Assembly (NCBI GenBank): GCA_964016885.1
Contig: CAXHJY010001182.1
Coordinates: forward strand, 1 to 38,904
Source: Eledone cirrhosa
Taxonomy: Eukaryota
DNA length: 38,904 bases
Direction of reading: 5' to 3'
Position numbers and translations under genes: made by a program. Every line of letters begins with the position of its first letter. Positions within the stretch are counted from its first letter, which is position 1. Of this stretch, positions 1-38,904 are shown one piece after another. The notes beneath the pieces were generated by a model. The model was not told the DNA's origin and did not search any database. It was given only the letters and a program-made list of their open reading frames with translations.

Positions 1-3076
<3,076 letters not shown>

Positions 3077-3117
3077 GTACAATATTAAATAAATGGAAAA
3101 CTATATTTATAAAACCA

Positions 3118-3192
3118 TATTTATTTCATTATATATATTTCGGGGATATCATATTAACAATATGCTATGCCTTCATCAGACAAAATACAATA
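3118..3192 (-). ncRNA. Type I hammerhead ribozyme motif (PLE terminal repeat)
   Basis: Reverse complement of 6439-6513: CUGAUGA, stem II, GAAA, UAUAUA, UA, then the stem I partner. Confidence 0.75.
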
Positions 3193-4624
3193 TAAACAGT
3201 TTTATAGATAAATAGATTCGACATACCGTTATAACACCGACTTCATTTGAAGAGGTATACGCTGGCTGTGAAAAAATTTTTTACACAGAGAGAAAGAAAA
3301 AGAGAGAAAACAGAAAGAAAGACAGAAAACGAAGAAAAGGAAGAAAAGAAGAGAAAGAGGAAATGCATGGAAACAAAATAGAGAGATGGAAAGATAGATA
3401 AAGCGAAGAACTTCATGTAAAGAAACAGAAAGAGATATATATATATAGAGAGAGATGAAATAGAGATAGATACATATATATATATAGAAAATTAGGTAGT
3501 GGGAGGTCATTTTGAGTAAATGTATCAATGATACGTTTATTTATTTATTTATTTATTTAGCTCAAGTATTAATGTAAGGGAGATATATAGAGAGAGAAAA
3601 AAATATAGAGAGAGGAAAAAAATAGCGAGAGAAAAAAAATTTAAAAATAGCCAGATATATTCGAGGCATAAAACCCCTATGTTTTAATGTATTAGTATTT
3701 ATAAAACTTACACTATATTGTAAATATCAGTATTCCTGAATGAGACAAGTATCTATAATGTGTGAAAATTAATTATCTTATGTTTAGTTTTAAAAAAAAT
3801 TCATGTTTATGTGACAGCTACAAACATCCATGCGAATCCAACTGAATCAGTCTGCAAACTCTAAGTTCACGGAAAACATTCTCAATGTGGTATAAAAATT
3901 TGAGTATACAAATATGTGTATTATTATTCCTGTCATTGCTCTACAAGATTATCTATCAAGCAGAAGTAGAGAGCAGATTTCAATATACTAATAAAAATAT
4001 ATATCAAACAAAACTAAAAATAAAAAGATATCAATAATAATAATAAGTAAAATATAGAATAGAAAACTAAAAAAATTAAAAAATATTACGAAAGAATATT
4101 ACATAATAAAAATATTATATATTAAACATACTACGTATTAAAAAATATTACGTATTAAAAATTTACATATTAAAGATATTAAAAATACAAAAATAAAAAA
4201 TATTATAGAATACTACAATAATAAAAATTAAAATAAAAATAACAATAAAAAATAAAAATACACCACAAAGATCAACCCTTCAAAGTTAATTGACAATATA
4301 TTGTCAAGTTCTTTACAAGACAAAGCCAAAAATGATCTATCAAATCACATCTAGCAAAGATCATTTCAAAAAGATTATGATGTCCAATTATGTCTATATA
4401 TGTTCTTATATTTAATATAGAAGTTTATCTAGTGTAAGGTTTATTCAAAAAATTTGGAGCATCAGCTTTTAGGGTAGCTTAATTTTTCATGAGGAATGTT
4501 TAGATAAAAATAAAATAAAAATAAATAAACAATAAAAAAGAGAGTAAAAAGAAGGAATCAAAGATTTAGGAATCAAAAATTTATCGGCTAGTTTCCCATA
4601 TAAATATAAATCAAACTAAATATA

Positions 4625-5407
4625 CTACATTTTAAATTTAAATTTATATTTAAACGTTGAGTTTAATCTATGTTTGCAACAACTGAATAAATTTGTCCGT
4701 AGGTTAAGGGAATTTTTAGATTTTAGTATAAAGAATATCTCCTCTGCGCAGAGGTCACATGTCTCAGAGGATGAATTAAAAGGAATCCCTCTTGAGACTA
4801 TATTCCAAGCCGTCGAATATCTAACGTTATCTAGCTTAAGTTGCCAGAGTACGCCTGATAGTGCCGTTGAAGATTTTTTACTTGGATCTGTGAAAGAATT
4901 CTTGTGGTTATTATAGCGAAGTTTAAATTCCGTCGATGTGGAACCGACGTAGTTAAAAGAATTAGAGTCAGTATTAACATTACAATTGTATACTATATTT
5001 TTAACTAAGCAGTTGTTATTTAACGGACATTTAGATCTATCTCTACAGTTACATTTGTTACCTTGTATATTATTTATGCTATTATCATTAGGTTTTAAGT
5101 TCCTATTATTTATTCTATTAATATTTTGTGCTAAATTTTTGGTGGATGAGTAAGTTAATTTAATTGTATGCCTATTGAAAATTGAGTGATACCTATGTGT
5201 TCTAGGGAAGCGATTATCAAGAGCTTTGAAAAATAATTTAGCGATGTGGGTTTTAATGTTTAGTGAGAAAGGGGGAGCAAACCAAATTATGTTCCTAGTT
5301 CTATTTCTTTTTTGTCCTTTGGAATTATTGTAATGCTTTCTATTATAGTTGTTAATGTTGTTGCCGTAATTAAAAAAGTTGTTACTTTGTTTAGTTTGTC
5401 TATCATT
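4625..5407 (-). pseudogene. C-terminal fragment of the PLE ORF (linker plus GIY-YIG endonuclease), 5'-truncated
   Basis: 783 bp, colinear with 13644-14426 and ending at the same TAG. Some differences between the copies are synonymous (AAC/AAT, TGT/TGC). Confidence 0.9.
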
Positions 5408-6438
5408 TAATTTTTATTATTGTAGTATTCTATAATATTTTTTATTTTTGTATTTTTAATATCTTTAATATGTAAATTTTTAATACGTAATATTTTTTAA
5501 TACGTAGTATGTTTAATATATAATATTTTTATTATGTAATATTCTTTCGTAATATTTTTTAATTTTTTTAGTTTTCTATTCTATATTTTACTTATTATTA
5601 TTATTGATATCTTTTTATTTTTAGTTTTGTTTGATATATATTTTTATTAGTATATTGAAATCTGCTCTCTACTTCTGCTTGATAGATAATCTTGTAGAGC
5701 AATGACAGGAATAATAATACACATATTTGTATACTCAAATTTTTATACCACATTGAGAATGTTTTCCGTGAACTTAGAGTTTGCAGACTGATTCAGTTGG
5801 ATTCGCATGGATGTTTGTAGCTGTCACATAAACATGAATTTTTTTTAAAACTAAACATAAGATAATTAATTTTCACACATTATAGATACTTGTCTCATTC
5901 AGGAATACTGATATTTACAATATAGTGTAAGTTTTATAAATACTAATTACATTAAAACATAGGGTTTTTACGCCTCGAATATATCTGGCTATTTTTAAAT
6001 TTTTTTTCTCTCGCTATTTTTTTCCTCTCTCTATATTTTTTTCTCTCTCTATATATCTCCCTTACATTAATACTTGAGCTAAATAAATAAATAAATAAAT
6101 AAACGTATCATTGATACATTTACTCAAAATGACCTCCCACTACCTAATTTTCTATATATATATATGTATCTATCTCTATTTCATCTCTCTCTATATATAT
6201 ATATCTCTTTCTGTTTCTTTACATGAAGTTCTTCGCTTTATCTATCTTTCCATCTCTCTATTTTGTTTCCATGCATTTCCTCTTTCTCTTCTTTTTCTTC
6301 GTTTTCTGTCTTTCTTTCTGTTCTCTCTCTTTTTCTTTCTCTCTGTGTAAAAAATTTTTTCACAGCCAGCGTAAACCTCTTCAAATGAAGTCGGTGTTAT
6401 AACGGTATGTCGAATCTATTTATCTATAAAACTGTTTA

Positions 6439-6513
6439 TATTGTATTTTGTCTGATGAAGGCATAGCATATTGTTAATATGATATCCCCGAAATATATAT
6501 AATGAAATAAATA
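6439..6513 (+). ncRNA. Type I hammerhead ribozyme motif with minimal palindromic stem III
   Basis: Stem I UAUU(G)UAUUUUGU pairs with AUGAAAUAAAUA. CUGAUGA at 6452-6458. Stem II contains CAUAUU-GUU-AAUAUG with an A.C mismatch at its base. GAAA at 6490-6493. Predicted cut after AUA at 6501. Confidence 0.75.
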
Positions 6514-6640
6514 TGGTTTTATAAATATAGTTTTCCATTTATTTAATATTGTAAATATACTCCAAATATTTGTCGAGTGCTTTTATACCAGTTATAAATA
6601 TTTACTAGTTGTAACCCAACAATTTTAAATATAACTTTCC

Positions 6641-9086
<2,446 letters not shown>

Positions 9087-9698
9087 TTATGTCAGGTCAC
9101 CAGTTGGTGCTATTGGTAACATGTATCCCAGTACAACCTGTCTCATGGTCGGGTCGTTGGCGACTAAACTGGCAACCCCACCAAGGTTTCTTGGTGAGGA
9201 GGGTGGCTTTGGACATCCTGCAGGACTAAAAACAAAACCTGTCAAAGGGCAAAGGGGCTCTTAAGAGTCAATAGCCATCCAAAATCACTGGGAGAGATGA
9301 CCCCTTAGCCTTTGTCAAGGCAGAATTCTAGGAGAAGGAAAACTCTGATATAACACCTGCAACCCTGATGGTATCCAATGATGTTGAATTGTTCTTCTTT
9401 TTGGTAAATATCATCTTGGTTAAGAGAGTGGGACTGGCTTTGTGCAGTGCCTTTGCTCACTATAAAAGCTTCACAGCACAGGCATTGCTTTATATCTGGA
9501 GATCTCTCTGCACTTGTCGTCACATGGTACCATGGGCCCAGCACTATGTGTCAATAATTGTCACAAGTGTAGTGTTTGTACCAGAGTTTTCAAGTCGCTG
9601 GCTGGACTAAAAAGTCACACTCGTTCAGCGCATTGGTAGGGGTTCTCCTACATGGATATAAAGTAGTGGCCGTACTCGAAAACGAGTTGGCAGCCACC
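9087..9698 (+). mobile_element. 612-bp non-autonomous RTE-derived element, copy 1
   Basis: Colinear with 22349-22960. Contains an RTE 5'UTR-like motif (CTAGGAGAAGGAAAACTCTGA), a C2H2 zinc-finger remnant at 9559-9639 and a 3' end GGCCGTACTCGAAAACGAGTTGGCAGCC running into (TA)n. Confidence 0.7.
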
Positions 9699-12170
<2,472 letters not shown>

Positions 12171-12210
12171 GTACAATATTAAATAAATGGAAACTATATT
12201 TATAAAACCA

Positions 12211-12285
12211 TATTTATTTCATTATATATATTTCAGGGATAACATATTAACAATATGCTATGCCTTCCTCAGACAAAATATAATA
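12211..12285 (-). ncRNA. Type I hammerhead ribozyme motif (best-formed PLE copy)
   Basis: CUGAGGA-AGG-C-AUAGCAUAUU-GUU-AAUAUGUUAU-C-CCU-GAAA-UAUAUA-UA. It differs from insertion 1 at the free N7 position, and stem II is closed by an A-U pair. Confidence 0.8.
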
Positions 12286-13643
12286 TAAACAGTTTTATAG
12301 ATAAATAGATTCGACATACCGTAAACAACATCTACTTGCATTTGAGAAGGTTGATTTGGTTGTGACAAAATTGTACACAGAGAGAAAGAAAGAGAGAGAG
12401 AAAGAGAGAGAAAAAGAGAGAAAAAAAGAAAAGAAAGACAGAAAACGAAGAGAAAGAAAAAGAAGAAATGCATGGAACAAAATAGAGAGATGGAAAGATA
12501 GATAAAGAGAAGAACTTCATGTAAAGAAACAGAAAGAGATATATATATATAGAGAGAGAGGAAATAGAGATAGATACATATATTGAAAGCTAGGTAGTGG
12601 GACAACTGTTGAATAACGTATCAATGATACATTTATTTATTTATTTATTTATTTAGCTCTAGTATTAATGTAAGGGAGATATATGGAAGGAAAACCAGCT
12701 GTTATATAGGGAGAGAAAAAATATAGAGAGAGAAAAAAAGAGAGAGAGAAAATTCAAAAATATCCAGACACAGGCTAGGCGTAAAAAACCTGTTTTAATG
12801 TAGAGGTATTAGTATTTACAAAACCAGCCTCTGCATTGTAAATATCAGTATTCCTGAATGAGATATGTATCCACAATGTGTGAAAATTAATGATCTTATG
12901 TTTAGTTTTTTTAAAAATTCATATGTTTATGTGATAATTACAAACATCTATGTGAATGTACATGATCAATTCTGCAAACTCTAAGTTCACGGAAAGTATT
13001 CTCAATGCGGTATAAAAATTTAAGTATACATATATGTGTATATAGAGTCAATATTACTATTTCTGTCTCTACTCTACAAGATTATCTATCAAGCAAAGAT
13101 AGAGCAGATTTCGATATACTAATAAAAATAAAAATAAAAATATATCGGAAACAAAACTAAACTAAAAATAACAATAACAATAATAAGTAATAATAAAATA
13201 GAAAACTAGGAAATATTACGAAAGAATATTACATATTAAAAATATTACATATTAAAAAATTTACATATTAAAAATATTAAAAATAAAAATTAGGAAAAAC
13301 TACAGTAATAAAAATAAAATAAACCACAAAGATCAACCCTTCAAAATTAATTGACAATATATTGCCAAGTTCATTATAAACATCAGAGTCGAAAAACAGA
13401 TAAAGCCAAAAATTATCTATCAAATCGCATCTAGCAAAGATCATTTCAAAAAGTATAGGATGCCCAATTTGGTCTACATGTGTTCTTATATTTAATATAA
13501 AAGTTTATCTAGTGTAACGTTTATTCGAAATATTTTTCATGAAGAATGTTTAAATAAATAAAATAAAAAAATAAAAAGAGTAAAAAGAGAATCAAAGATT
13601 TATCGGCTAGTTTCCCATATAATTATAAATCAAACTAAATATA

Positions 13644-14935
13644 CTACATTTTAAATTTAAATTTATATTTAAACGTTGAGTTTAATCTATGTTTGCAACA
13701 ACTGAATAAATTTGTCCGTAGATTAAGGGAATTTTTAGATTTTAGTATAAAGAATATCTCCTCTGCGCAGAGGTCGCATGTCTCAGAGGATGAATTAAAA
13801 GGAATCCCCCCTGAGACTATATTCCAAGCCGTCGAATATCTAACGTTATCTAGCTTAAGTTGCCAGAGTACGCCTGATAGTGCCGTTGAAGATTTTTTAC
13901 TTGGATCTGTGAAAGAATTCTTGTGGTTATTATAGCGAAGTTTAAATTCCGTCGATGTGGAACCGACGTAGTTAAAAGAATTAGAGTCAGTATTAACATT
14001 ACAATTGTATACTATATTTTTAACTAAGCAGTTGTTATTTAACGGACATTTAGATCTATCTCTACAGTTACATTTGTTAACTTGTATATTATTTATGCTG
14101 TTATCACTAGGTTTTAAGTTCCTATTATTTATTCTTTTGATATTTTGTGCTAAATTTTTGGTGGATGAGTAGGTTAATTTAATTGTATGTCTATTGAAAA
14201 TTGAGTGATATCTATGTGTTCTAGGGAAGCGATTATCAAGAGCTTTAAAAAATAGTTTAGCGATGTGGGTTTTAATGTTTAGTGAGAAAGGGGGGGCAAA
14301 CCAAATTATGTTCCTAGTTCTATTTCTTTTTTGGCCTTTGGAATTATTGTAATGCTTTCTATTATAGTTGTTAAGGATGTTGCCGTAATTAAAAAAGTTG
14401 TTACTTTGTTTAGTTTGTCTATCATTATCTATGTACACAATCTTATCAGCATATCCTGCTCTAGCTAATGCTTCATTGTAGTATTGGGCTTTTTCGTCGA
14501 AAATCTTTCTATTCGACGAGATCCTAGAGATACGTTTTTGGACAGAGTTTACTATAGTGTTTTTGACAGATCTGGGGTGGTTAGAGTTAAAATTTACATA
14601 GTTTAAGTTTTCATTCAACTTGTGAAAAGGATAGTGAAGACATGTGTTGAGATTTAATGTTATATCTAGGAAATTGACTATTCTATGGTTGTTTTCAATT
14701 TCTATTTTAAGATTAAAGTAATTAAAAAATTGTGTAATTTGTTTACATTTTCTATTTAGTTCAGAGTTTTATCAATAAGTAAAAGCATGTCGTCTCTATA
14801 TAAACCTCCGGTAGTACCGGGTATTTTCCTATGTAGCGAATTGATTAAAAATAAACCCACAAGGTCAGTTACCTGGGCTGAGTCGGATGATCCCATAGTA
14901 ATGTCAAAATTGCTATCTCTATCTGCTCTGGTCCA
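13644..14935 (-). pseudogene. PLE reverse transcriptase (C-terminal half, one frameshift near 14760) plus GIY-YIG endonuclease
   Basis: Hand translation gives [21 protein letters not shown] and GLYRDD (14789-14800), then after a frameshift VNFLDITL, SNHP, IIWFAPPFS, CNC...CP...C, IVY...YVGST...FKLRYNNH, CDLC, CCKH. Confidence 0.92.
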
Positions 14936-15035
14936 TATTTAATATTGTAAATATACTCCAAATATTTGTCGAGTGCTTTTATATCAGTTATAAATATTTA
15001 CTAGTTGTAACACAACAATTTAAATATAACTTTCC

Positions 15036-18076
<3,041 letters not shown>

Positions 18077-18132
18077 CTTATGTCACGTCACCAGTTGGTG
18101 CTACTGGTAACATGTATCCCAGTACAACCTGT
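18077..18132 (+). repeat. Left copy of a direct duplication flanking the full-length RTE
   Basis: 56 bp identical to 22348-22403. The preceding TG/TA pattern also matches. Confidence 0.9.
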
Positions 18133-18390: not shown

Positions 18391-21300
18391 ATCATCATCA
18401 TCATCATCATCACCGTTTTACGTCCGTTCTTCCACGCTAGCATGGGTTAGACGGGTTGTCCTGTTGTGGGCAGTGTCTGGTCGGCTGACCATGCCTTGCT
18501 CATACAGGAACTGATCTGGCTTGATTTCTACAGCTGGATGCCCTTCCTAACACCAACCTCATTTACAGTGAGTGCTGGGTGCTTTTTCGTGGCGCCTACA
18601 CGTCCACTTTACAGTGTGGGCTGGGTGCTTTTTTGCCGTGGCACCTCCACGACCACCTTGCGGTGGGGGGGGGGGGGCATATTGTTTATATGCTTCAGCA
18701 TGTACCCATGGGAGGTCGGGTACCCTGTATTACTGCGTGACGCCAGAAGTCACGGTCGTGTGTCATTGACTTTGAGAGGTGTAGTTGGGTAAGGTCGGCT
18801 TTTATCACCTCATCCCAAGTCATCTTGGGTCTCCCCACTCCGCGGTTTCCATCAACTTCTAGTGCTCTGCACCTTTTTATGCAGCTGTCATCCTTCATAC
18901 GCATCACATGTCCATACCAGCGTAACCGCCTCTCCTGCACGCAGCATTTGATTCCTCTTATGCTCAGTCTCTCTCTCAATTCATTTATGCTTTGTCGTTC
19001 ACGTATATTACTGTTACACATCCATCGGAGCATGCAGGCTTCGTTTCTCTCTAATCTACGTAAGTCTTCCACCTTCAGCGCCCAGGTCTCACTACCATGC
19101 AACATCGCTGTTCGGATACACGCATCATACAGTCTGCCTTTCATTCTGAGGGAGAAGCCTTTTGCAGCTAGCAGTGGTAGTAGTTCCCTAAACTTCTTCC
19201 ATCCCGTTCTTACCCTAGTTATTGTACTTTCTGAGCACCCACCTCCGTTGCTAATTCGGTCACCTAGGTAGCAGAAGCTGTCTACTGTTTCTACAGGGCC
19301 CTCCCAGAGATTGGTGGTACTTGTTTCCTGTGGCTGTTTGCTTGCTGTTTCAGCACAGCTGCTGCATGTGAATCCTACATTCTTAATTAAGCTTCCTGAG
19401 ATCCCGCTACATCTCTTGTGTACCCATTGTTTGCATTTGGGGCAAAGAATGGAGTTCCTACCTACACCTTTCCTACATACTGAACAAGGCCATTTCCCTG
19501 AGGGGATCTGGGTTCTGTTTTCTCGTCTACTTATAAGGACCTTAGTCTTTGTCATGTTGACTTTGAGGCCCTTTCTCTCTAGTCCCTGCTTCCAGGTTTG
19601 GAATTTATTCTCTAGTTCTACCATAGATTCAGCTATGAGTGCGAGGTCATCAGCATACAGGAGTTCCCATGGGCATCCGGTCTTAAACTCCTCCGTTATT
19701 GCCTGCAGGACTATGATGAACAGGAGAGGGCTAAGAACAGAGCCCTGGTGGACCCCAACCTGTACGCTAAATTCCTCGCTATACTCATTGCCAATCCTAA
19801 CTTTGCTGACTGCTCCCCTATACATGGCTTGTACCGCTTTCACAAGCCATTCATCTACTCCTAGTTTTCTAAGAGCCCACCAGATTACTGCACGTGGAAC
19901 TCTGTCAAAGGCTTTCTCAAGGTCGACAAATGCCAAGTAGAGTGGCTTACTTTTAGCTAGGTACTTTTCCTGTAATTGCCTCACAAGGAAGAGCGCATCA
20001 GTGGTGCCTTTCCCTGGAACAAACCCAAATTGCATCTCGTCTATATTCACCCGGTCCCTAATCAGCTGTGCTATAACTCTTTCTGTTACTTTCATGACCT
20101 GGTCCATCAACTTTATACCTCTATAGTTTCCTCTATCTAGTGCATCGCCTTTACCTTTGTAGCAGTTGACAATGATGCTACTGCACCAATCTTTTGGTAT
20201 GGCCCCCTCTAGTATTACCTGGTTAACGATACGTGTGGTTATAGTGTGACCTACAGACCCAGATGCCTTCAGCATCTCGGCAGCTATACCCGATGGACCG
20301 GTTGCCTTCCCTATCTTCATATCTCTGATTGCCTTACTTACTACGCTGCCGCTGACTTGTACTGCTGGTCCCTCTATAGGGTCTACGTGGGGTAGGGTCT
20401 CTTCTTCCCATGCATTCTCCTCATTTAGTAATCTATCATAATGACTCTTCCATGCATCTTTCTTCTCAGCACTTGTGAGGGCAAGCTCACCTTTATCATT
20501 CCGGATACACTTCTCTCCAATGACATCACAACTATCTCTGACACACTGCCTCGCAATCTTGAATACCTCCTGTTTCTGGTCCTCACGTTGTAAAACATGC
20601 TTGAATTTTCTATCCTCTGCTTCCCTCCTAGCTAAGTATACTTGTCGCCTAGCTTCCCTCTTGGTCTCTATGTAATGTACCCTGCTCCCCCCGTTCTTCC
20701 ATTCTTTCCATGCCTGTCTCTTGGCCTTGACTGCTTCATCTACCTTATTGTTCCACCACCAAGTCACTCTCCTCCTGCTTGAGGTCTTACTCCAGCCACA
20801 AACCTCATCCGTCGCCTCTAGTAAGTTATTTTTTAGGAACTCCCAGTTCTCTTCTACGTTAAATGTCTCTATCTGTTCTTCTTTACTGTCGTAGGCGTTG
20901 AGTAAAATATCTTTAAATCTGTTACTGGTTGAGGGGACTTTCAGCTTCCAGATCTTTCTTTTCCAGGTTGGCCTCTGTTTCAGGGCTCGTCTAGTTCTGA
21001 CCGTGAGGTCGCTGACAACTAAGCTATGTTGGGATGTACATTCCTCACTAGGGAAGGCTTTTGTGTTTACGACCGTCCATCTGTCACGTCCTCTGATGAG
21101 GATAAAATCTAACTGACTAGAGTGCTCCCCTGATCTATAGGTGATCAGGTGGTTGTCGGGTTTTTTAAAGTTTGTGTTACATATCGACATGTCATTGGCG
21201 TCGCAGAATTCTAGAAGTCTGAATCCTTCCTCATTCCTTGTGCCAACTCCATGGCCTCCATGTACTCTATTGAAGCCGTCGCAGTGTTTACCTACGTGTC

Positions 21301-22170
21301 CGTTAAAATCTCCTGCAATGATTAGGAAGTCCTTGTCGTCTGTTAGAGCAGTAGTGTGTATTAGGGACTCGTAAAACCTATCCTTAAGTTCGTCTGGCAG
21401 CCCCGATTGGGGTGCGTAAGCTGATATTATTGTGGTAATTGTCTTATTCAGGACTAGTCTGAGTTTAATGATTCTTGCATTTACCCTGTACACTGAGATT
21501 ACTTTATCTACCCACTTGTCAGCTAATAGTATACCTACACCACCCATCCCATCGTCATTTCCCACCCAGAAAAATTTGTAGCACTGGCTTTTTCCTACAA
21601 GGACTCTAGCAGACCCTCCTCTCCATCTAGTCTCTTGCACACAGCATACATCAACTTCCTTTCGCTCTAGCATTTCTACGATTTCTCCTGCTCTTCCTTT
21701 CATTGAGCCTACATTGATGGTACCAACTCGGAGTTTTGGGCATTTGTCGACACTCGTAGGGGAGGGTCTCTGGGTTGGCGCTTCACGTGGGTGCTTGGTA
21801 GCTCGCAGATTCATATTTCATCTATTGATTCAGAGTTGCTCGTGTATTCCCAGCTCATCCATCCCTAACGGTGGGAAAATTGAGGGCTAGAAGGACAGTG
21901 GTGGTGGGGTAATGGCAGGGTGTGTTGGGATGCGCCAGAGGAGGAGAGAGTTAGTTAGGCAGGTAGTAGCAGCAGCAGCAGTGGAAATGGCATGCTAGGT
22001 TTGATTGGTCGAATAGACTATGGTGGTGTGTGGGGGTGGGGGGGAGGGAAATTGTGAGGTAGGAACTGAGGGTCGCATGGTAAATATCCAAGTTAATACT
22101 ACATCAGTAAAATTAACAATAATAACGTCATGAAAAAAGCTACTAAGAGAAACCCTCGAAAATTTATCGT
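18391..22170 (-). mobile_element. Full-length RTE-clade LINE (family A) with (TGA)n tail
   Basis: About 350 bp of 5'UTR, a single intact ORF, about 280 bp of 3'UTR, and (TCA)7 on the plus strand at 18392-18412. Confidence 0.95.
18695..21814 (-). CDS. RTE LINE protein: APE endonuclease, reverse transcriptase and PHD-like finger (1039 aa)
   Basis: APE motifs GTINV, VQETRW, SAYAPQ, GDFNGHVG, QLDFIL. RT motifs NYRGIKL, QFGF, FVDLEKAFDRV, GVHQGSVLSPLLF, YADD, FCYLG. RTE C-terminal motifs HGSETW and RRLRWYGHV. Confidence 0.97.
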   Translation of the reverse strand: MNLRATKHPREAPTQRPSPTSVDKCPKLRVGTINVGSMKGRAGEIVEMLERKEVDVCCVQETRWRGGSARVLVGKSQCYKFFWVGNDDGMGGVGILLADKWVDKVISVYRVNARIIKLRLVLNKTITTIISAYAPQSGLPDELKDRFYESLIHTTALTDDKDFLIIAGDFNGHVGKHCDGFNRVHGGHGVGTRNEEGFRLLEFCDANDMSICNTNFKKPDNHLITYRSGEHSSQLDFILIRGRDRWTVVNTKAFPSEECTSQHSLVVSDLTVRTRRALKQRPTWKRKIWKLKVPSTSNRFKDILLNAYDSKEEQIETFNVEENWEFLKNNLLEATDEVCGWSKTSSRRRVTWWWNNKVDEAVKAKRQAWKEWKNGGSRVHYIETKREARRQVYLARREAEDRKFKHVLQREDQKQEVFKIARQCVRDSCDVIGEKCIRNDKGELALTSAEKKDAWKSHYDRLLNEENAWEEETLPHVDPIEGPAVQVSGSVVSKAIRDMKIGKATGPSGIAAEMLKASGSVGHTITTRIVNQVILEGAIPKDWCSSIIVNCYKGKGDALDRGNYRGIKLMDQVMKVTERVIAQLIRDRVNIDEMQFGFVPGKGTTDALFLVRQLQEKYLAKSKPLYLAFVDLEKAFDRVPRAVIWWALRKLGVDEWLVKAVQAMYRGAVSKVRIGNEYSEEFSVQVGVHQGSVLSPLLFIIVLQAITEEFKTGCPWELLYADDLALIAESMVELENKFQTWKQGLERKGLKVNMTKTKVLISRRENRTQIPSGKWPCSVCRKGVGRNSILCPKCKQWVHKRCSGISGSLIKNVGFTCSSCAETASKQPQETSTTNLWEGPVETVDSFCYLGDRISNGGGCSESTITRVRTGWKKFRELLPLLAAKGFSLRMKGRLYDACIRTAMLHGSETWALKVEDLRRLERNEACMLRWMCNSNIRERQSINELRERLSIRGIKCCVQERRLRWYGHVMRMKDDSCIKRCRALEVDGNRGVGRPKMTWDEVIKADLTQLHLSKSMTHDRDFWRHAVIQGTRPPMGTC

Positions 22171-22348: not shown

Positions 22349-22960
22349 TTATGTCACGTCACCAGTTGGTGCTACTGGTAACATGTATCCCAGTACAACC
22401 TGTCCCATGGTCGGGTCGTTGGCGACTAAACTGGCAACCCCACCAAGGTTTCTTGGTGAGGAGGGTGACTTTGGACATCCTGCAGGACTAAAAACAAAAC
22501 CTGTCAAAGGGCAAATGAGCTCTTAAGAGTCAATGGCCATCCAAAATCACCGGGAAAGATGACCCCTTAGCTTTTGTCACGGCAGAATTCTAGGAGAAGG
22601 AAAACTCTGATATCACACCTGCAACCCTGATGATATCCAATGATGTTGACTTGTTCTTCTTTTTGGTAAATATCATCTTGGTTAAGAGAGTGGGACTGGC
22701 TTTGTGCAGTGCCTTTGCTCACTATAAAAACTTCATGGCACAGGCATTGCTTTATATCTGGAGATCTCTCTGCACTTGTCGTCACATGGTACCATGGGCC
22801 CAGCACTATGTGTCAATAATTGTCACATGTGTAGTGTTTGTACCAAAGTTTTCAAGTCGCTGGCCGGACTGAAAAGTCACACTCGTTCAGCGCATCGGTA
22901 GGGGTCCTCCTACATGGATATAAAGTAGTGGCCGTACTCGAAAACGAGTTGGCAGCCACC
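22349..22960 (+). mobile_element. 612-bp non-autonomous RTE-derived element, copy 2
   Basis: Colinear with 9087-9698. C2H2 finger [22 protein letters not shown] at 22830-22895. Confidence 0.7.
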
Positions 22961-23029
22961 ATATGTATGTATGTGTGTATATGTATATATGTGTGTATAT
23001 ATGTATGTATGTGTGTGTATGTATGTATG

Positions 23030-23114: not shown

Positions 23115-23660
23115 AGTAATAATAATAAATGTGAAGACTAAAATTCAAAGAGGGCTTGATAAGGATAAATATATATCAAATATATAAGAACCCTAGAGCA
23201 AATATTTATTAAAATAATAGATTAAAGTTTAAGCAAAGAATATCTGCTTTCACCCTTAATGGGATTTACTGAAACTAAAAAAAAAAAATCAATCTGTGAA
23301 CGTAGAAGTAAATATTTTAAAAAATGTTGCAACCGAAGGAAAACAGGAAGACGATACTTTGGTTCGTGAAGACGTTCCCTGGCAATGAACGGAAAGAAAC
23401 AAATATAATAACGTCATTATTTGGAGCGATGAGAAAAATTACATGCAAAGACAAAACCACGATAATTATCTTCGCATTCTTCCGGTCATCGCCAGGGAAC
23501 GTTTTCACGAACCAAAGTGTTGTCCTTCGGTTGCAACGCTTTTTGAAATATTTACTTCTGCGTTCACAGATTGACTTTGTTAGTTTCAGAAGATCCCGTT
23601 AAGGGTGAAAGCAGCGATTCTTTGCTTAAACTTTAATCTGTTATTTTAATTAATAAATAT
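23115..23660. mobile_element. Degenerate fold-back element (arms ~23202-23414 and ~23459-23660) with hammerhead-like ends
   Basis: Imperfect ~200-bp inverted arms and about 87 bp of unique extension on the left. (TA)n lies on both sides. Confidence 0.65.
23582..23632 (+). ncRNA. Degenerate hammerhead-like motif (more degenerate mirror copy at 23226-23276, minus strand)
   Basis: AGUUU-CAGAAGA-UCCC-GUUAA-GGGU-GAAA-GCA-loop-UGC-UU-AAACU. All three stems form, but the core reads CAG instead of CUG. Confidence 0.5.
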
Positions 23661-23840
23661 ATATATATATAAAGTCCAGAAATAGCCGTCAAAACGGGTT
23701 GAGCTCTGCCGTCAGGGTCCTCACTCTTTTCCTATTACCCACTCTACTACCCAAAGTATCGAGTACTCTGGTGCATTATGGTCCACCTGGTTCCTTACCA
23801 CACTTCCTTCGTTATATATATATACACACACATACATATA

Positions 23841-27137: not shown

Positions 27138-27191
<54 letters not shown>

Positions 27192-27203
27192 TTAATATAG
27201 AAA

Positions 27204-27254
27204 GGCTTCTACAGGACTAGAACTGTTTCATTCGGGAGAAATCATCAGGAAGCC
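27204..27254 (-). ncRNA. Type I hammerhead ribozyme motif
   Basis: GGCUUC-CUGAUGA-UUUC-UCCC-GAAU-GAAACAG-UUCUAGUC-CUGUA-GAAGCC: 6-bp stem I, 4-bp stem III, GUA cleavage triplet, U.U at the base of stem II. Confidence 0.8.
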
Positions 27255-27300
27255 TTCCTGATGATTTCTCCCGAATGAAACAGTTCTAATCCTGTAGAAG
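27254..27300 (+). ncRNA. Type I hammerhead ribozyme motif (mirror copy, 4-bp stem I)
   Basis: CUUC-CUGAUGA (27258-27264)...GAAACAG...CUGUA-GAAG. Predicted cut after 27296. Confidence 0.75.
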
Positions 27301-27603
27301 CCTTTCTATATTAAATATCTATACTCTTCTTTATATTGAGTACCTTATTTACTGTGGTTACCCCCGATTGAGCCCAGGATAAATGTGGTTACCCCCGATT
27401 GAGCCCAGGATAAACTTATCTATATATATATAATATGTATTCTTTGATGGGTGTGGTAGACTACTGTTAACCACACAAAACCTATAGGTTTGTAGTAATA
27501 ATATGCTTTACTAAAGCATATATATATATTATTCTTTTACTCTTTTACCAGTCCCAGCCATCCGGCTGAGGCCTTGCTGGGCACCGCTCTGATATACATA
27601 TAT

Positions 27604-30608: not shown

Positions 30609-31718
30609 ATCATCATCATCAACGTTTAATGTCCGTGTTCCACGCTTGCATGGGTTTGGACGGGGGTAGTCCCACTTGAGGCAAGAGTGATTGTCTTGCT
30701 CGCATAGGACTGTCTGGCAGGTTTTCTACAGTTGGATGCCCTTCCTAACACCAACCACATTTACAGTGTGGGTCTGGGAGGTTTTTTACCGTGTTGCCTC
30801 CACGGCCACATTACAGCGTGGACTGTGTGTTTTTTTGTCGTGACACCTACACGATCTCATTTGTTTCGGCCTGGATGGCGCGGCACCAACATAACTTTAC
30901 ATAGAACGGGGTGGTGTGGATGGGGTGGGGGTGGTGGCGGGACGGGGTGTATTTTGTTAGAGATGCCTACTGGCAAGGCGGGTCTTCTCTGTTACTGAGT
31001 ACCGCCAAAGGTCTCGGTCCAGTGACATTGTCTTGGAGAGGTGTAAGTGTGTGAGGTCGGAGTTTATCAGCTCATCCCATGTTTTTCTAGGTCTGCCTAT
31101 TCCGTGGCTACCGTCTATCTTTATTGCCCTGCACTTTGTAATACAGCTATCGACTTTCATGCGCATCACGTGTCCATACCAACGCAGCCTTCTCTCGAGT
31201 AAACAACATCTGATCCCTCTTATCTCTAATTTTTTCCTTAGTTCGTTTATGCTTTGCCGTTCACGTATATTACTGTTACACATCCAGCGGAGCATGCAAG
31301 CTTCGTTCCTCTCTAGTCTGCGTATATCCTCTGCACACAATGCCCAGGTCTCACTACCATGCAACATTGCTGTTCGTATGCAGGCATCGTACAACCTGCC
31401 TTTCATTTTTAGGGAGAACCCTTTAGCAGCTAATAGTGGTATAAGCTCTCTGAACTTTTTCCAACCAGTTCTGACTCTAGCTACAGTACTTTCAGAGCAC
31501 CCTCCCCCACTGCTGATTTTATCGCCCAGGTAACGGAAGCTGTCCACTATTTCTATAGAACCCTCTGCGCAATTGAAAGAGCTAGTATTTTGTGGGCACT
31601 TGCTGCTACTTATTGCACCAGAACACCGGCCACATGTAAAATCTATGTTCTTAGTTAGCTTACCTGTGATCCCACTACATCTTTTATGCACCCATACTTT
31701 GCATTTAGGACATAATAT
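30609..31718 (-). mobile_element. 5'-truncated RTE family B copy (ORF C-terminus open from 31718 to the stop at 30957)
   Basis: [14 protein letters not shown]...FRYLG...HGSETW...RRLRWYGHV, paralogous to RTE-A, followed by 3'UTR and (TGA)n tail. Confidence 0.93.
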
Positions 31719-31781
31719 ATGTATATATATATAAGTATATATATATGTATGTATATATATATATATAAGTATATATATATG

Positions 31782-31815
<34 letters not shown>

Positions 31816-32230
31816 AGTATATATATGTATATATATATATATAAGTATATATATATATAAGTATATATATATATATATATATAAGTATATATATATATAT
31901 ATATATAAGTATATATATATATATATATAAGTATATATATATATATAAGTATATATATATATATAAGTATATATATATATATAAGTATATATATATATAT
32001 AAGTATATATATATATATATAAGTATATATATATATATATAAGTATATATATATATATATAAGTATATATATATATATATATATAAGTATATATATATAT
32101 ATATAAGTATATATATATATATATAAGTATATATATATATAAGTATATATATATATATATATAAGTATATATATATATAAGTATATATATATATATATAT
32201 AAGTATATATATATATATAAGTATATATAT
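31719..32230. repeat. (TA)nAG array between the inverted RTE-B copies
   Basis: TAAG-marked TA repeat. Confidence 0.95.
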
Positions 32231-32709
32231 ATGGGATGAGCTGATAAACTCCGACCTCACACACTTACACCTCTCCAAGACAATGTCACTGGACCGAGAC
32301 CTTTGGCGGTACTCAGTAACAGAGAAGACCCGCCTTGCCAGTAGGCATCTCTAACAAAATACACCCCGTCCCGCCACCACCCCCACCCATCCACACCACC
32401 CCGTTCTATGTAAAGTTATGTTGGTGCCGCGCCATCCAGGCCGAAACAAATGAGATCGTGTAGGTGTCACGACAAAAAAACACACAGTCCACGCTGTAAT
32501 GTGGCCGTGTAGGCAACACGGTAAAAACCTCCCAGACCCACACTGTAAATGTGGTTGGTGTTAGGAAGGGCATCCAACTGTAGAAAACCTGCCAGACAGT
32601 CCTATGCGAGCAAGACAATCACTCTTGCCTCAAGTGGGACTACCCCCGTCCAAACCCATGCAAGCGTGGAACACGGACGTTAAACGTTGATGATGATGAT
32701 GATGATGAT
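32231..32709 (+). mobile_element. Short 5'-truncated RTE family B copy, inverted relative to 30609-31080
   Basis: Near-identical reverse complement of 30609-31080, with its own (TGA)n tail. Confidence 0.93.
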
Positions 32710-37405: not shown

Positions 37406-37828
37406 ATGTATATATATATGTGTGTGTATATATATATATATATGTGTGTGTGTGTATATATATGTATATATATATGTGTGTGTGTGCATATATATATATA
37501 TGTATATAATATATAAGAACAAAAGATGGTTAAAAGAGTTCCATGTATTTTATTATGTGCATTTCAAAAACAAATATCATCATGCAATAATATTTGTGTT
37601 TTCATCAGATAAAACAGGAAGACATGATATGAAGGTTAAAAAACACTTGTGGATAGTTCAGTTTGAAATGCGCATAATAAAATACATGGAACTCTTTTAA
37701 CCATCTTTTGTTCTTTTGTTCTTATATATTATGTATACTCCAGTCCTACAAATTGTAGAGTGCTTCTTATCCGATATCTGCATTGCTTTATTGTACTACA
37801 ATAAAACTCACCTCCTACATTATATATG

Positions 37829-37935
<107 letters not shown>

Positions 37936-38128
37936 GTGTATGTATATATATATATGTGTATATATATATATGTGTGTGTATATATATATGTATATATATA
38001 TGTGTGTGTATATATATATATGTATATATATGTGTGTATATATATATGTGTGTGTATATATATATGTGCGTGTATATATATATATGTATATATATATGTG
38101 TGCGTGTATATATATATATATATATATA

Positions 38129-38904
38129 CACAGGAAACAAGTACCACCAATCTCTGGGAGGGCCCTGTAGAAACAGTAGACAGCTTCTGCTACCTAGGTG
38201 ACCGAATTAGCAACGGAGGTGGGTGCTCAGAAAGTACAATAACTAGGGTAAGAACGGGATGGAAGAAGTTTAGGGAACTACTACCACTGCTAGCTGCAAA
38301 AGGCTTCTCCCTCAGAATGAAAGGCAGACTGTATGATGCGTGTATCCGAACAGCGATGTTGCATGGTAGTGAGACCTGGGCGCTGAAGGTGGAAGACTTA
38401 CGTAGATTAGAGAGAAACGAAGCCTGCATGCTCCGATGGATGTGTAACAGTAATATACGTGAACGACAAAGCATAAATGAATTGAGAGAGAGACTGTGCA
38501 TAAGAGGAATCAAATGCTGCGTGCAGGAGAGGCGGTTACGCTGGTATGGACATGTGATGCGTATGAAGGATGACAGCTGCATAAAAAGGTGCAGAGCACT
38601 AGAAGTTGATGGAAACCGCGGAGTGGGGAGACCCAAGATGACTTGGGATGAGGTGATAAAAGCCGACCTTACCCAACTACACCTCTCAAAGTCAATGACA
38701 CACGACCGTGACTTCTGGCGTCACGCAGTAATACAGGGTACCCGACCTCCCATGGGTACATGCTGAAGCATATAAACAATATGCCCCCCCCCCCACCGCA
38801 AGGTGGTCGTGGAGGTGCCACGGCAAAAAAGCACCCAGCCCACACTGTAAAGTGGACGTGTAGGCGCCACGAAAAAGCACCCAGCACTCACTGTAAATGA
38901 GGTT
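38129..38904 (+). mobile_element. 5'-truncated RTE family A copy (runs off the window)
   Basis: Near-identical reverse complement of about 18557-19332. One amino-acid difference (S/C) and a shorter C-run (11 vs 13). Confidence 0.96.

Follow-up and report, generated by a model that had tools for sequence, protein, structure and literature searches.

Known Penelope-like elements and their hammerheads

Minimal type I hammerhead ribozymes are known from the Penelope-like elements (PLEs) of metazoans, where they lie in the pLTR on the sense strand, have a long helix II and a short palindromic helix III of the dimer type, and often occur in truncated single copies and opposite-strand pairs (PMC4209133). 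Activity as dimers, low rates and protein assistance have been reported for them (PMC4209133, PMC11167929, PMC6765202). Within the PLEs, the Hydra clade is generally shorter than 3 kb, and nearly all of its families carry hammerheads and insert into (TA)n; the description of the clade includes a CxCX5C linker, CxxC and CxH motifs around conserved E and N residues without CCHH, a hammerhead near the 3' end, and inverted 5'-truncated copies (PMC8557442). In 26 of 26 published rows for this clade stem III reads ac..gt, none being A/U-only, and 24 of those 25 families target (TA)n (PMC8557442). The literature already covers a palindromic helix III in PLE hammerheads, hammerheads in the Hydra clade, the targeting of (TA)n and inverted arms.

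On how PLEs choose the start sites of reverse transcription, and why they leave a one-sided tail and inverted arms, we found one in vitro system, the Poseidon element PAc of Anolis. Its reverse transcriptase (RT) initiates at two internal positions downstream of the hammerhead, and the sequence in between becomes the tail; the start site lacks homology to the target, and mutating the ribozyme had no effect on insertion in vitro (PMC11167929).

Here we describe a related locus in a stretch of 38,904 nt from Eledone cirrhosa (contig CAXHJY010001182.1), referred to below as the window. We hold it quite probable that the window carries a minimal type I hammerhead in the terminal repeat of a Hydra-clade PLE, a ribozyme for which we expect slow cutting that likely requires two copies to pair through an 8-nt palindrome, and that bulged hairpins just downstream of it likely set two starting points of reverse transcription.

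Hammerhead copies in the window

Motif and fold identify a minimal type I hammerhead at 6439..6513 (+), here copy B. Its core CUGAUGA (6452-6458) is followed by stem II (6459-6489) and GAAA (6490-6493); stem III (6493-6500) is the palindrome AUAUAUAU, stem I pairs 6444-6451 with 6502-6509, and the cut is predicted after A6501, in an AUA triplet. Beyond an internal loop, stem I is extended (6425..6523, +) by an 11-bp outer helix, 6425-6435:6513-6523, with pair probabilities of 0.65-1.00 in the computed fold, and the family variant A>G at 6430 still pairs there, as G-U. Copy A, at 3118..3192 (-) with its predicted cut after 3130, is identical to copy B over 75 nt. Copy C, at 12211..12285 (-) with its predicted cut after 12223, differs from both at four sites, in copy B numbering 6443 (G/A), 6456 (U/G, the N7 position), 6482 (A/U) and 6489 (C/U).

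An earlier note on this DNA, made from the letters alone, had placed CUGANGA, GAAA and UH at these coordinates, and all of them are present in A, B and C, with UH as UA; the differences that it gave for N7, the stem I bulge and stem II are the four sites just listed. It listed three copies. The coordinates stand, but A and B are identical arms of one insertion, and a fourth hammerhead, E, was missed at 37542..37621 (-). A descriptor found E, and so did a model built from the three copies (E-value 8.5e-7, a rough figure); it belongs to a second family, and its architecture matches that of A-C in the 3 bp, the pyrimidine mismatch, the long stem II, the 8-nt stem III (AUGCACAU) and the AUA triplet. 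A relaxed type I descriptor matched four times in the window and once in 100 shuffled windows, so the motif is not a product of chance.

Three helices join the core CUGANGA, GAAA and UH, closed by stem I, as in the minimal type I ribozymes of PLEs. The position is that of a pLTR hammerhead on the sense strand, 1.4-1.5 kb 3' of the endonuclease stop and 52-139 nt from the insertion ends; together with Hydra-type protein motifs, this bears out the earlier naming of a PLE hammerhead. The long helix II, the short palindromic helix III of the dimer type, the truncated copies and the opposite-strand pairs are likewise those described in PMC4209133, and the hammerhead itself is ordinary for PLEs. It differs from the metazoan description in a longer stem II (14 positions), in the 11-bp outer stem I, and in positions 10.1-11.1, which are mostly A-U here and G-C there (PMC4209133). 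In copies A and B an extra nucleotide after A9 followed by G10.1-C11.1 is a possible fold; with the major allele, U6489 (69% and 76%), the pair is A-U or G-U.

For comparison we used 78 homologous loci from metagenome contigs (from the best 80 of 359), called relatives below. Hammerheads occur in 54 of the 78, as 56 distinct motifs of which two calls are doubtful; at 10.1-11.1 these have U.U in 22 of 56 and G-C in 20 of 56. The Rfam hammerhead models had no match at E<=10 in the two regions scanned. Six relatives with clear hammerhead motifs also had no Rfam match at the gathering score, and the models therefore miss this type of hammerhead. Among the matches listed in a scan of the whole window, microRNA models matching (TA)n dominate.

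Inverted insertions and the element behind them

Arm A (3078..5407, -) is a 5'-truncated PLE with the end of the ORF (linker, GIY-YIG-type endonuclease, stop at 4625), a 1.5-kb 3' UTR and the hammerhead, and its short end, 52 nt past the cut site, is joined to (TA)n. The inverted arm B (5406..6640, +) is a 1.15-kb copy of the 3' UTR with an 87-nt tail (6554-6640), and its long end, 139 nt past the cut site, is also joined to (TA)n; the same-species run X1 has six contigs in which a loose end at 6638 leads on into (AT)n. In a self-comparison, 3078-4232 and 5406-6553 form an inverted repeat of 98.9% identity. A and B are thus the arms of one insertion, and as identical arms of it their hammerheads are not independent copies.

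The second insertion consists of arm C (12172..14935, -), a 5'-truncated PLE with RT motifs, thumb, linker, endonuclease (stop at 13644), 3' UTR, hammerhead and short end, and of the inverted arm D (14936..15035, +), which contains only the tail with its long end and is 97% identical to 6540-6640. In the third insertion, E, the inverted arm (37655..37819, +) begins within the hammerhead, has the perfect palindrome AUGCGCAU as stem III (37668-37675), and has a long tail ending at (TA)n. Each insertion has one short arm (52, 52 and 38 nt past the cut site) and a long inverted arm (139 nt, the equivalent point in D, and 143 nt); the overlaps of the inverted arms are about 1150, about 60 and 14 nt, and every short and long end adjoins (TA)n. 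At both short ends the junction with (TA)n is a C (positions compared: 6554/3077/12171), at a place occupied by A in the long arms, and this C is present even at the purely A/T array 1-3076. The copies in the window are 5'-truncated and dead, and RNA transcribed across A and B would trap the ribozyme within a 1.15-kb duplex.

The protein fragments of the window resemble those of the Hydra clade. The linker CNCRDRSKC is of the form CxCX5C, and the Neptune/Nematis linker pattern is absent; CDLCAEE...LN...CKH gives CxxC and CxH around the conserved E and N, without CCHH; and the ORF fragments have a GIY-YIG-type core that lacks the inner cysteine pair. The RT motifs of arm C, MGSSDSAQV and LYRDD (with a frameshift near 14770), differ from those of Hydra-1_Obim (PMC8557442). 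Pfam had no match for the PLE fragments, and the endonuclease call is made from motifs and homologs. The window copies end before the RWK and DKT motifs, which are present in 49 and 53 of the 78 homologous loci and in full-length homologs. We found 21 long homologs, 31-39% identical and mostly of about 700 aa; a quick tree, made from the thumb-to-endonuclease part only and without Neptune, Nematis or Poseidon outgroups, gave no clear placement, with a long branch (1.81). In viral contigs, 167 pattern matches included no relatives.

A 3' UTR of 1.4-1.5 kb and an ORF of 700 aa together imply an element of about 3.7 kb, which lies outside the typical Hydra-clade size of less than 3 kb, and the 87-nt tail differs from the 30-40 bp described for PLEs (PMC8557442). 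By feature matching to the list of Craig et al., with the linker, the CxxC/CxH residues, the insertion into (TA)n, the hammerhead near the 3' end and the inverted 5'-truncated copies in common (PMC8557442), the element is classified as a Hydra-clade PLE.

Bulged hairpins in the tail

The tail in arm B contains a bulged hairpin at 6559..6578 (+), with an ACUC/GAGU base stem, a 2-nt 3' bulge and a CAA/UUG upper stem (ACUC-CAA-loop-UUG-UC-GAGU), which starts 5 nt after the short end and has a TA-rich tract before it. The same hairpin occurs at 14955..14974 (+) in arm D and at 37737..37761 (+) in the tail of family E. Among the relatives, RCUC..GAGY is found in 39 of 45 regions of at least 90 nt, compared with 2.0 (maximum 6) in shuffles, a 4-bp pattern that was chosen after the sequences had been seen and counted without correction for relatedness, most loci being mutually distant; a stricter 5-bp test, run first, gave 20 of 45 compared with 7.2. 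The three positions of the upper stem pair in 28, 24 and 19 of 29 rows, using several kinds of pair and only with the 2-nt bulge (sizes 0-4 were tried and 2 alone was significant; 8 of 37 rows with short inner stretches are omitted). RNAalifold found no pairs in a MAFFT alignment of 37 tail hairpins, in which the 5' arm is visibly one column out of register, and for this reason pairs were counted from motif anchors. The outer A-U pair of the window stands for G-C, replaced on both sides; none of eight family variants at 6554-6590 falls on the 16 paired positions of the hairpin; and the base stem is nearly invariant in sequence. Judged by these counts, the hairpin covaries as RNA.

Two copies of the hairpin lie between the cut site and the ATG in 14 of 18 full 5' regions, compared with 0.02 in shuffles, the 18 including one L035 repeat and two doubtful hammerheads. 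Hairpin 1 is 36-52 nt past the cut site in the relatives, and hairpin 2 is 101-113 nt past it. Upstream of 34 ORF starts, 24 have at least two hairpins, spaced by 55-83 nt in 23 of the 24, and the second is usually about 36-50 nt before the ATG. A conserved, target-like TA tract lies about 40-55 nt downstream of the cut site, just 5' of the bulged hairpin: TATA or ATAT occurs in the 14 nt preceding the hairpin in 31 of 39 cases and in 39 of 183 control windows. The families of the window have no full-length copy there, and hairpin 2 is not seen for them on that account; for the main family we predict it shortly after the equivalent of 6640, about 87 nt from the first.

Among the (TA)n runs in the loci of the relatives, only 2 of 26 are followed by the hairpin. 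In L024:342-530 and L028:1837-1915 a (TA)n run leads directly into the hairpin and then into an ORF start; these full-length copies begin at a hairpin and not at the cut site, possibly by insertion into the TA tract of the element itself.

The covarying bulged hairpin, twin in the relatives, looks new. Neither the twin hairpins nor the AUA variant discussed below turned up in Rfam or in the literature searched, most subscription papers and the PAc and bioRxiv supplements lying outside that search. The main text of PMC8557442 has no occurrence of the words hairpin or stem-loop, and hairpin-like strings are visible in published Hydra consensus sequences.

Insertion ends and hairpins

In the window, the ends of insertions lie away from the cut site. 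All six arm ends are 38-143 nt past it, none of the best-supported loose ends listed for the same-species runs lies at 6501, and read depth has no drop there. Among 18 ends joined to (TA)n in the relatives, seven are at 31-44 nt and lack the hairpin, seven are at 92-113 nt and include hairpin 1, and the remaining four are at 5, 63, 73 and 140 nt, two of them following doubtful hammerhead calls. Where an end and a hairpin can be compared at the same locus, the distances are 95 and 101 nt (L014), 31 and 39 nt (L066), and 34 and 41 nt (L067), and in L007 the 3' copy diverges after hairpin 1. The ends fall just upstream of one or the other hairpin, an arrangement that would account for the Penelope "tail".

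PAc agrees with what we propose for this element in having two start sites, a stem-loop at the start site, an AT-rich target and a protein-assisted ribozyme. It differs in having one AC-rich stem-loop inside the ORF, without homology to the target, whereas here two bulged hairpins lie upstream of the ATG; and its start sites were demonstrated in vitro, whereas here they are read from genomic ends, each 5' of one hairpin, with a TA tract before hairpin 1 (PMC11167929). By analogy with PAc we infer a scheme of two start sites, each of which would be set by one hairpin copy, and we are moderately inclined to think that the twin hairpins fix the two start sites of the RT. If so, the twin hairpin gives a tangible signal, open to being shifted or altered, whose spacing predicts the length of the tail.

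A competing reading, which we regard as unlikely, is that the tail hairpins serve transcription or translation, as a promoter repeat or a 5' UTR signal, and match the insertion ends only because TA-rich tracts adjoin them. Their location between ribozyme and ATG, the second copy usually about 36-50 nt before the ATG, would suit such a role, as would the nearly invariant base stem and the presence of PLE promoters in the pLTR, known from the literature. Against it, the upper stem covaries as RNA, the two copies fit the two classes of ends, and the spacing of 55-83 nt (23 of 24) fits the difference between long and short ends.

Stem III, the cleavage triplet and dimers

The earlier note described stem III as a minimal palindrome of the dimer type, and so it is, with 46 of the 56 motifs from relatives fully pairable at this stem. 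In all 56 it reads AC..GU, and in none is it A/U-only. The triplet is GUH in 56 of 56 relatives and in 26 of 26 published Hydra rows, and it is AUA in both families of the window, which also share U15.2-A16.2; the AU..AU stem III with AUA sets them apart from the ac..gt of the published rows (PMC8557442). The replacement of a clade-wide GUH by AUA in this lineage looks new; the variant was not found in Rfam or the searched literature. Such a natural switch in an expanded lineage could serve to test whether PLE hammerheads are kept for cutting.

Among the variants of stem III are AUAUGUAU and AUGCGCAU; at 6497 a G has a frequency of 28% in one same-species run and 64% in another. Insertion E, which is also flanked by (TA)n, has AUGCGCAU in its inverted arm and AUGCACAU in its main arm. 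The centre of the palindrome thus differs on both sides (AUAUAUAU as against AUGCGCAU), where only a dimer can pair. The suggestion that stem III matters as a (UA)n repeat like the target DNA does not survive the G variant at 6497, family E and the absence of any A/U-only stem among the 56 relatives. At the level of sequence the palindrome is conserved and the (UA)n sequence is not, which fits cleavage as a dimer.

The double-hammerhead fold is computed at -26.8 kcal/mol, compared with 2 x -7.1 for monomers, and is better by about 12 kcal/mol. Inactive folds are lower still (monomer -15.7 compared with -7.1, dimer -39.9 compared with -26.8), with a stem I probability of 0.00. A review puts AUA at a cleavage rate that can be orders of magnitude below that of GUC or GUA (PMC3138052). 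The triplet and the computed energies agree with the low activity, dimer dependence and protein assistance published for PLE hammerheads. Most likely, the hammerhead processes tandem transcripts as a slow, protein-assisted dimer.

The main rival to dimer processing is that the hammerhead is kept mainly as a scaffold that does not cut, binding protein or dimerising RNA and so holding two templates in one particle, with AUA reflecting relaxed selection on catalysis. We find this doubtful. The AUA of both window families against GUH in all 56 relatives and all 26 published rows speaks for it, overlapping arms (about 1150, about 60 and 14 nt) arise most easily with two templates, and in PAc the ribozyme mutants insert normally and the protein is a predicted dimer (PMC11167929). 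Yet all 11 catalytic core positions are invariant in the family reads and in the second family E, AUA still obeys the NUH rule, and the Naiads, which lack canonical hammerheads, also show inverted insertions (PMC8557442).

Probable selection on the ribozyme fold

Whether the fold is under selection depends on how far one looks beyond the three copies. The earlier note held that the surrounding UTR had diverged markedly while CUGANGA, GAAA and UH were kept. Between A and C this is true of the distant 1.4-kb UTR (198/1252 substitutions, 84.2% identity) but not of the immediate flanks, where 77 of 78 positions are identical, plus one gap, compared with 71 of 75 in the ribozyme (1/78 versus 4/75 substitutions, Fisher p=0.20). 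With flanks as conserved as itself, the ribozyme is part of a conserved 3' block and not an island. The ORF is 97.7% identical (18/780 substitutions; 11 synonymous and 6 non-synonymous codons of 259), and the 3' block (5/153) is no different from it (p=0.57). The 3' UTR segments 3232-4627 and 12324-13643 stand at 84%, the ORF and the 3' block that border them are much more alike, and there is a sharp boundary near 6400, a pattern that suggests a mosaic or an exchange of UTRs between subfamilies.

Copies A, B and C show no two-sided change, and an unchanged 11-nt core among them is expected with p=0.15 to 0.69; the three copies alone thus do not bear out the variation respecting the structure that was claimed for them, and the support comes from family reads, hammerhead E and the relatives. 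From same-species runs, 3529 contigs (X1) and 29445 reads (X9) at least 80% alike were aligned to 6250-6648; the runs X5 and X7 from other species, with just 3 and 12 aligned records, added little. The variants listed for X1 and X9 include seven sites within 6439-6513 that reach 4% or more, none of them a core base: N7 (6456), the stem II mismatch (6466 and 6482), loop II (6473), 6489, 6497 and 6504. The change A>G at 6497 is at the centre of stem III and gives a U-G pair in the dimer, and that at 6504 turns U-G into U-A. Six further variant rows, obtained by subtraction, are all changes at A, found in X9 only and weaker than those listed.

All seven variable sites are compatible with the structure, for which random placement gives p of about 0.002-0.005, a rough figure since the variants are linked in subfamilies, X9 consists of RAD data from few loci, and the rules of tolerance were set after the table had been seen. 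The linkage of 6466 with 6482 is not resolvable in the reads, and some combinations appear mismatched. For a family-wide comparison of core and flanks, to which the earlier note had pointed, the outcome is divided: the core is invariant at the 4% level, yet the density of variable sites is 7/75 in the ribozyme and 25/158 in the flanks (p=0.22), and core invariance in the reads alone has p=0.19.

Covariation across family copies, which the same note had called for, is nil among the three copies and appears with hammerhead E. Compared with the A-C family, E has eight two-sided changes in stem II, where slid controls give 1-3; all eight come from this one sequence, in an alignment fitted to the model. 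The two families have no other clear DNA similarity (best blastn E-value 0.013), and the 11 core positions are unchanged in both. These wider data, the same-species reads and hammerhead E, support selection on the fold.

That the conserved 3' block merely reflects recent shared ancestry or recombination between subfamilies, without selection on the ribozyme, seems to us very unlikely. The sharp boundary near 6400, and a block (5/153) no more conserved than the ORF (18/780, p=0.57) with a UTR of 84% identity between them, are what it would lead one to expect, but it leaves unexplained the seven compatible sites out of seven, the eight two-sided changes relative to the E family and the motif in 54 of 78 relatives.

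Two further observations concern the reads. Over 6490-6533, many share the stretch from GAAA through stem I and the outer helix, but upstream of it their stem II differs, which suggests that there are more subfamilies with an exchanged stem II. One X1 contig joins the predicted cut site 6501 to 6444 through two letters; this weak case could be a short ribozyme tandem or an alignment artefact.

A proposed mechanism

We suppose that a tandem transcript of the form pLTR-ORF-pLTR joins two hammerheads and that these, probably with the protein of the element, process the RNA, a step to which we give good though not strong odds of being right. With slightly less assurance, we suggest that the RT would bind each hairpin and extend one nicked (TA)n strand from the adjoining TA-rich tract, so that the hairpin spacing equals the tail length. 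One strand of the target would use hairpin 1 and the other hairpin 2, and after truncation the two cDNAs would join to give inverted arms with a one-sided tail.

A more ambitious version, which we offer as improbable, is an insertion signal in three parts: the palindrome joins two RNAs, each hairpin copy seats one RT, and the nicked (TA)n strands are primed beside hairpin 1 on one RNA and beside hairpin 2 on the other, and in this lineage the ribozyme fold would be retained for dimerising rather more than for cutting. If true, it would account at once for the tail, for its lying on one side only and for the overlap of the inverted arms.

The idea that the (UA)n 3' end left on the RNA by cleavage, which is stem III, pairs with nicked (TA)n DNA to prime insertion is already largely refuted, and we give it hardly any credence: a 5' product with ...AUAUAUAUA at its end would complement the target, and one weak contig joint lies at 6501, but the six arm ends of the window lie 38-143 nt past the cut site, 6501 has neither a drop in depth nor a listed top loose end, stem III is not (UA)n in the variants, in family E or in any relative, and the cut end would bear a 2',3'-cyclic phosphate (PMC3138052).

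Other elements in the window

Another insertion with inverted arms lies between (TA)n runs at 23115-23812. Its arms (23203-23655) are 77% complementary, one being about 88 nt longer, and no recognisable hammerhead was found in this inverted repeat; an adjoining 140-nt piece between TA runs has a hairpin of the tail type at 23741, with a degenerate second one some 55 nt upstream of it. At 18695-21817 (-), 30957-32264 and 37759-38766 there are non-LTR elements that combine AP endonuclease, RT and PHD finger, one with an intact frame of 1040 aa and the others in pieces among TA arrays. A near-perfect inverted repeat of 141 nt (95%) at 27183-27323 is possibly a fold-back or MITE-like element. Finally, a dispersed repeat of 614 nt occurs at 9087-9700 and 22349-22962, 96% identical and with TA arrays on its flanks, and its first 49 nt recur at 18078.
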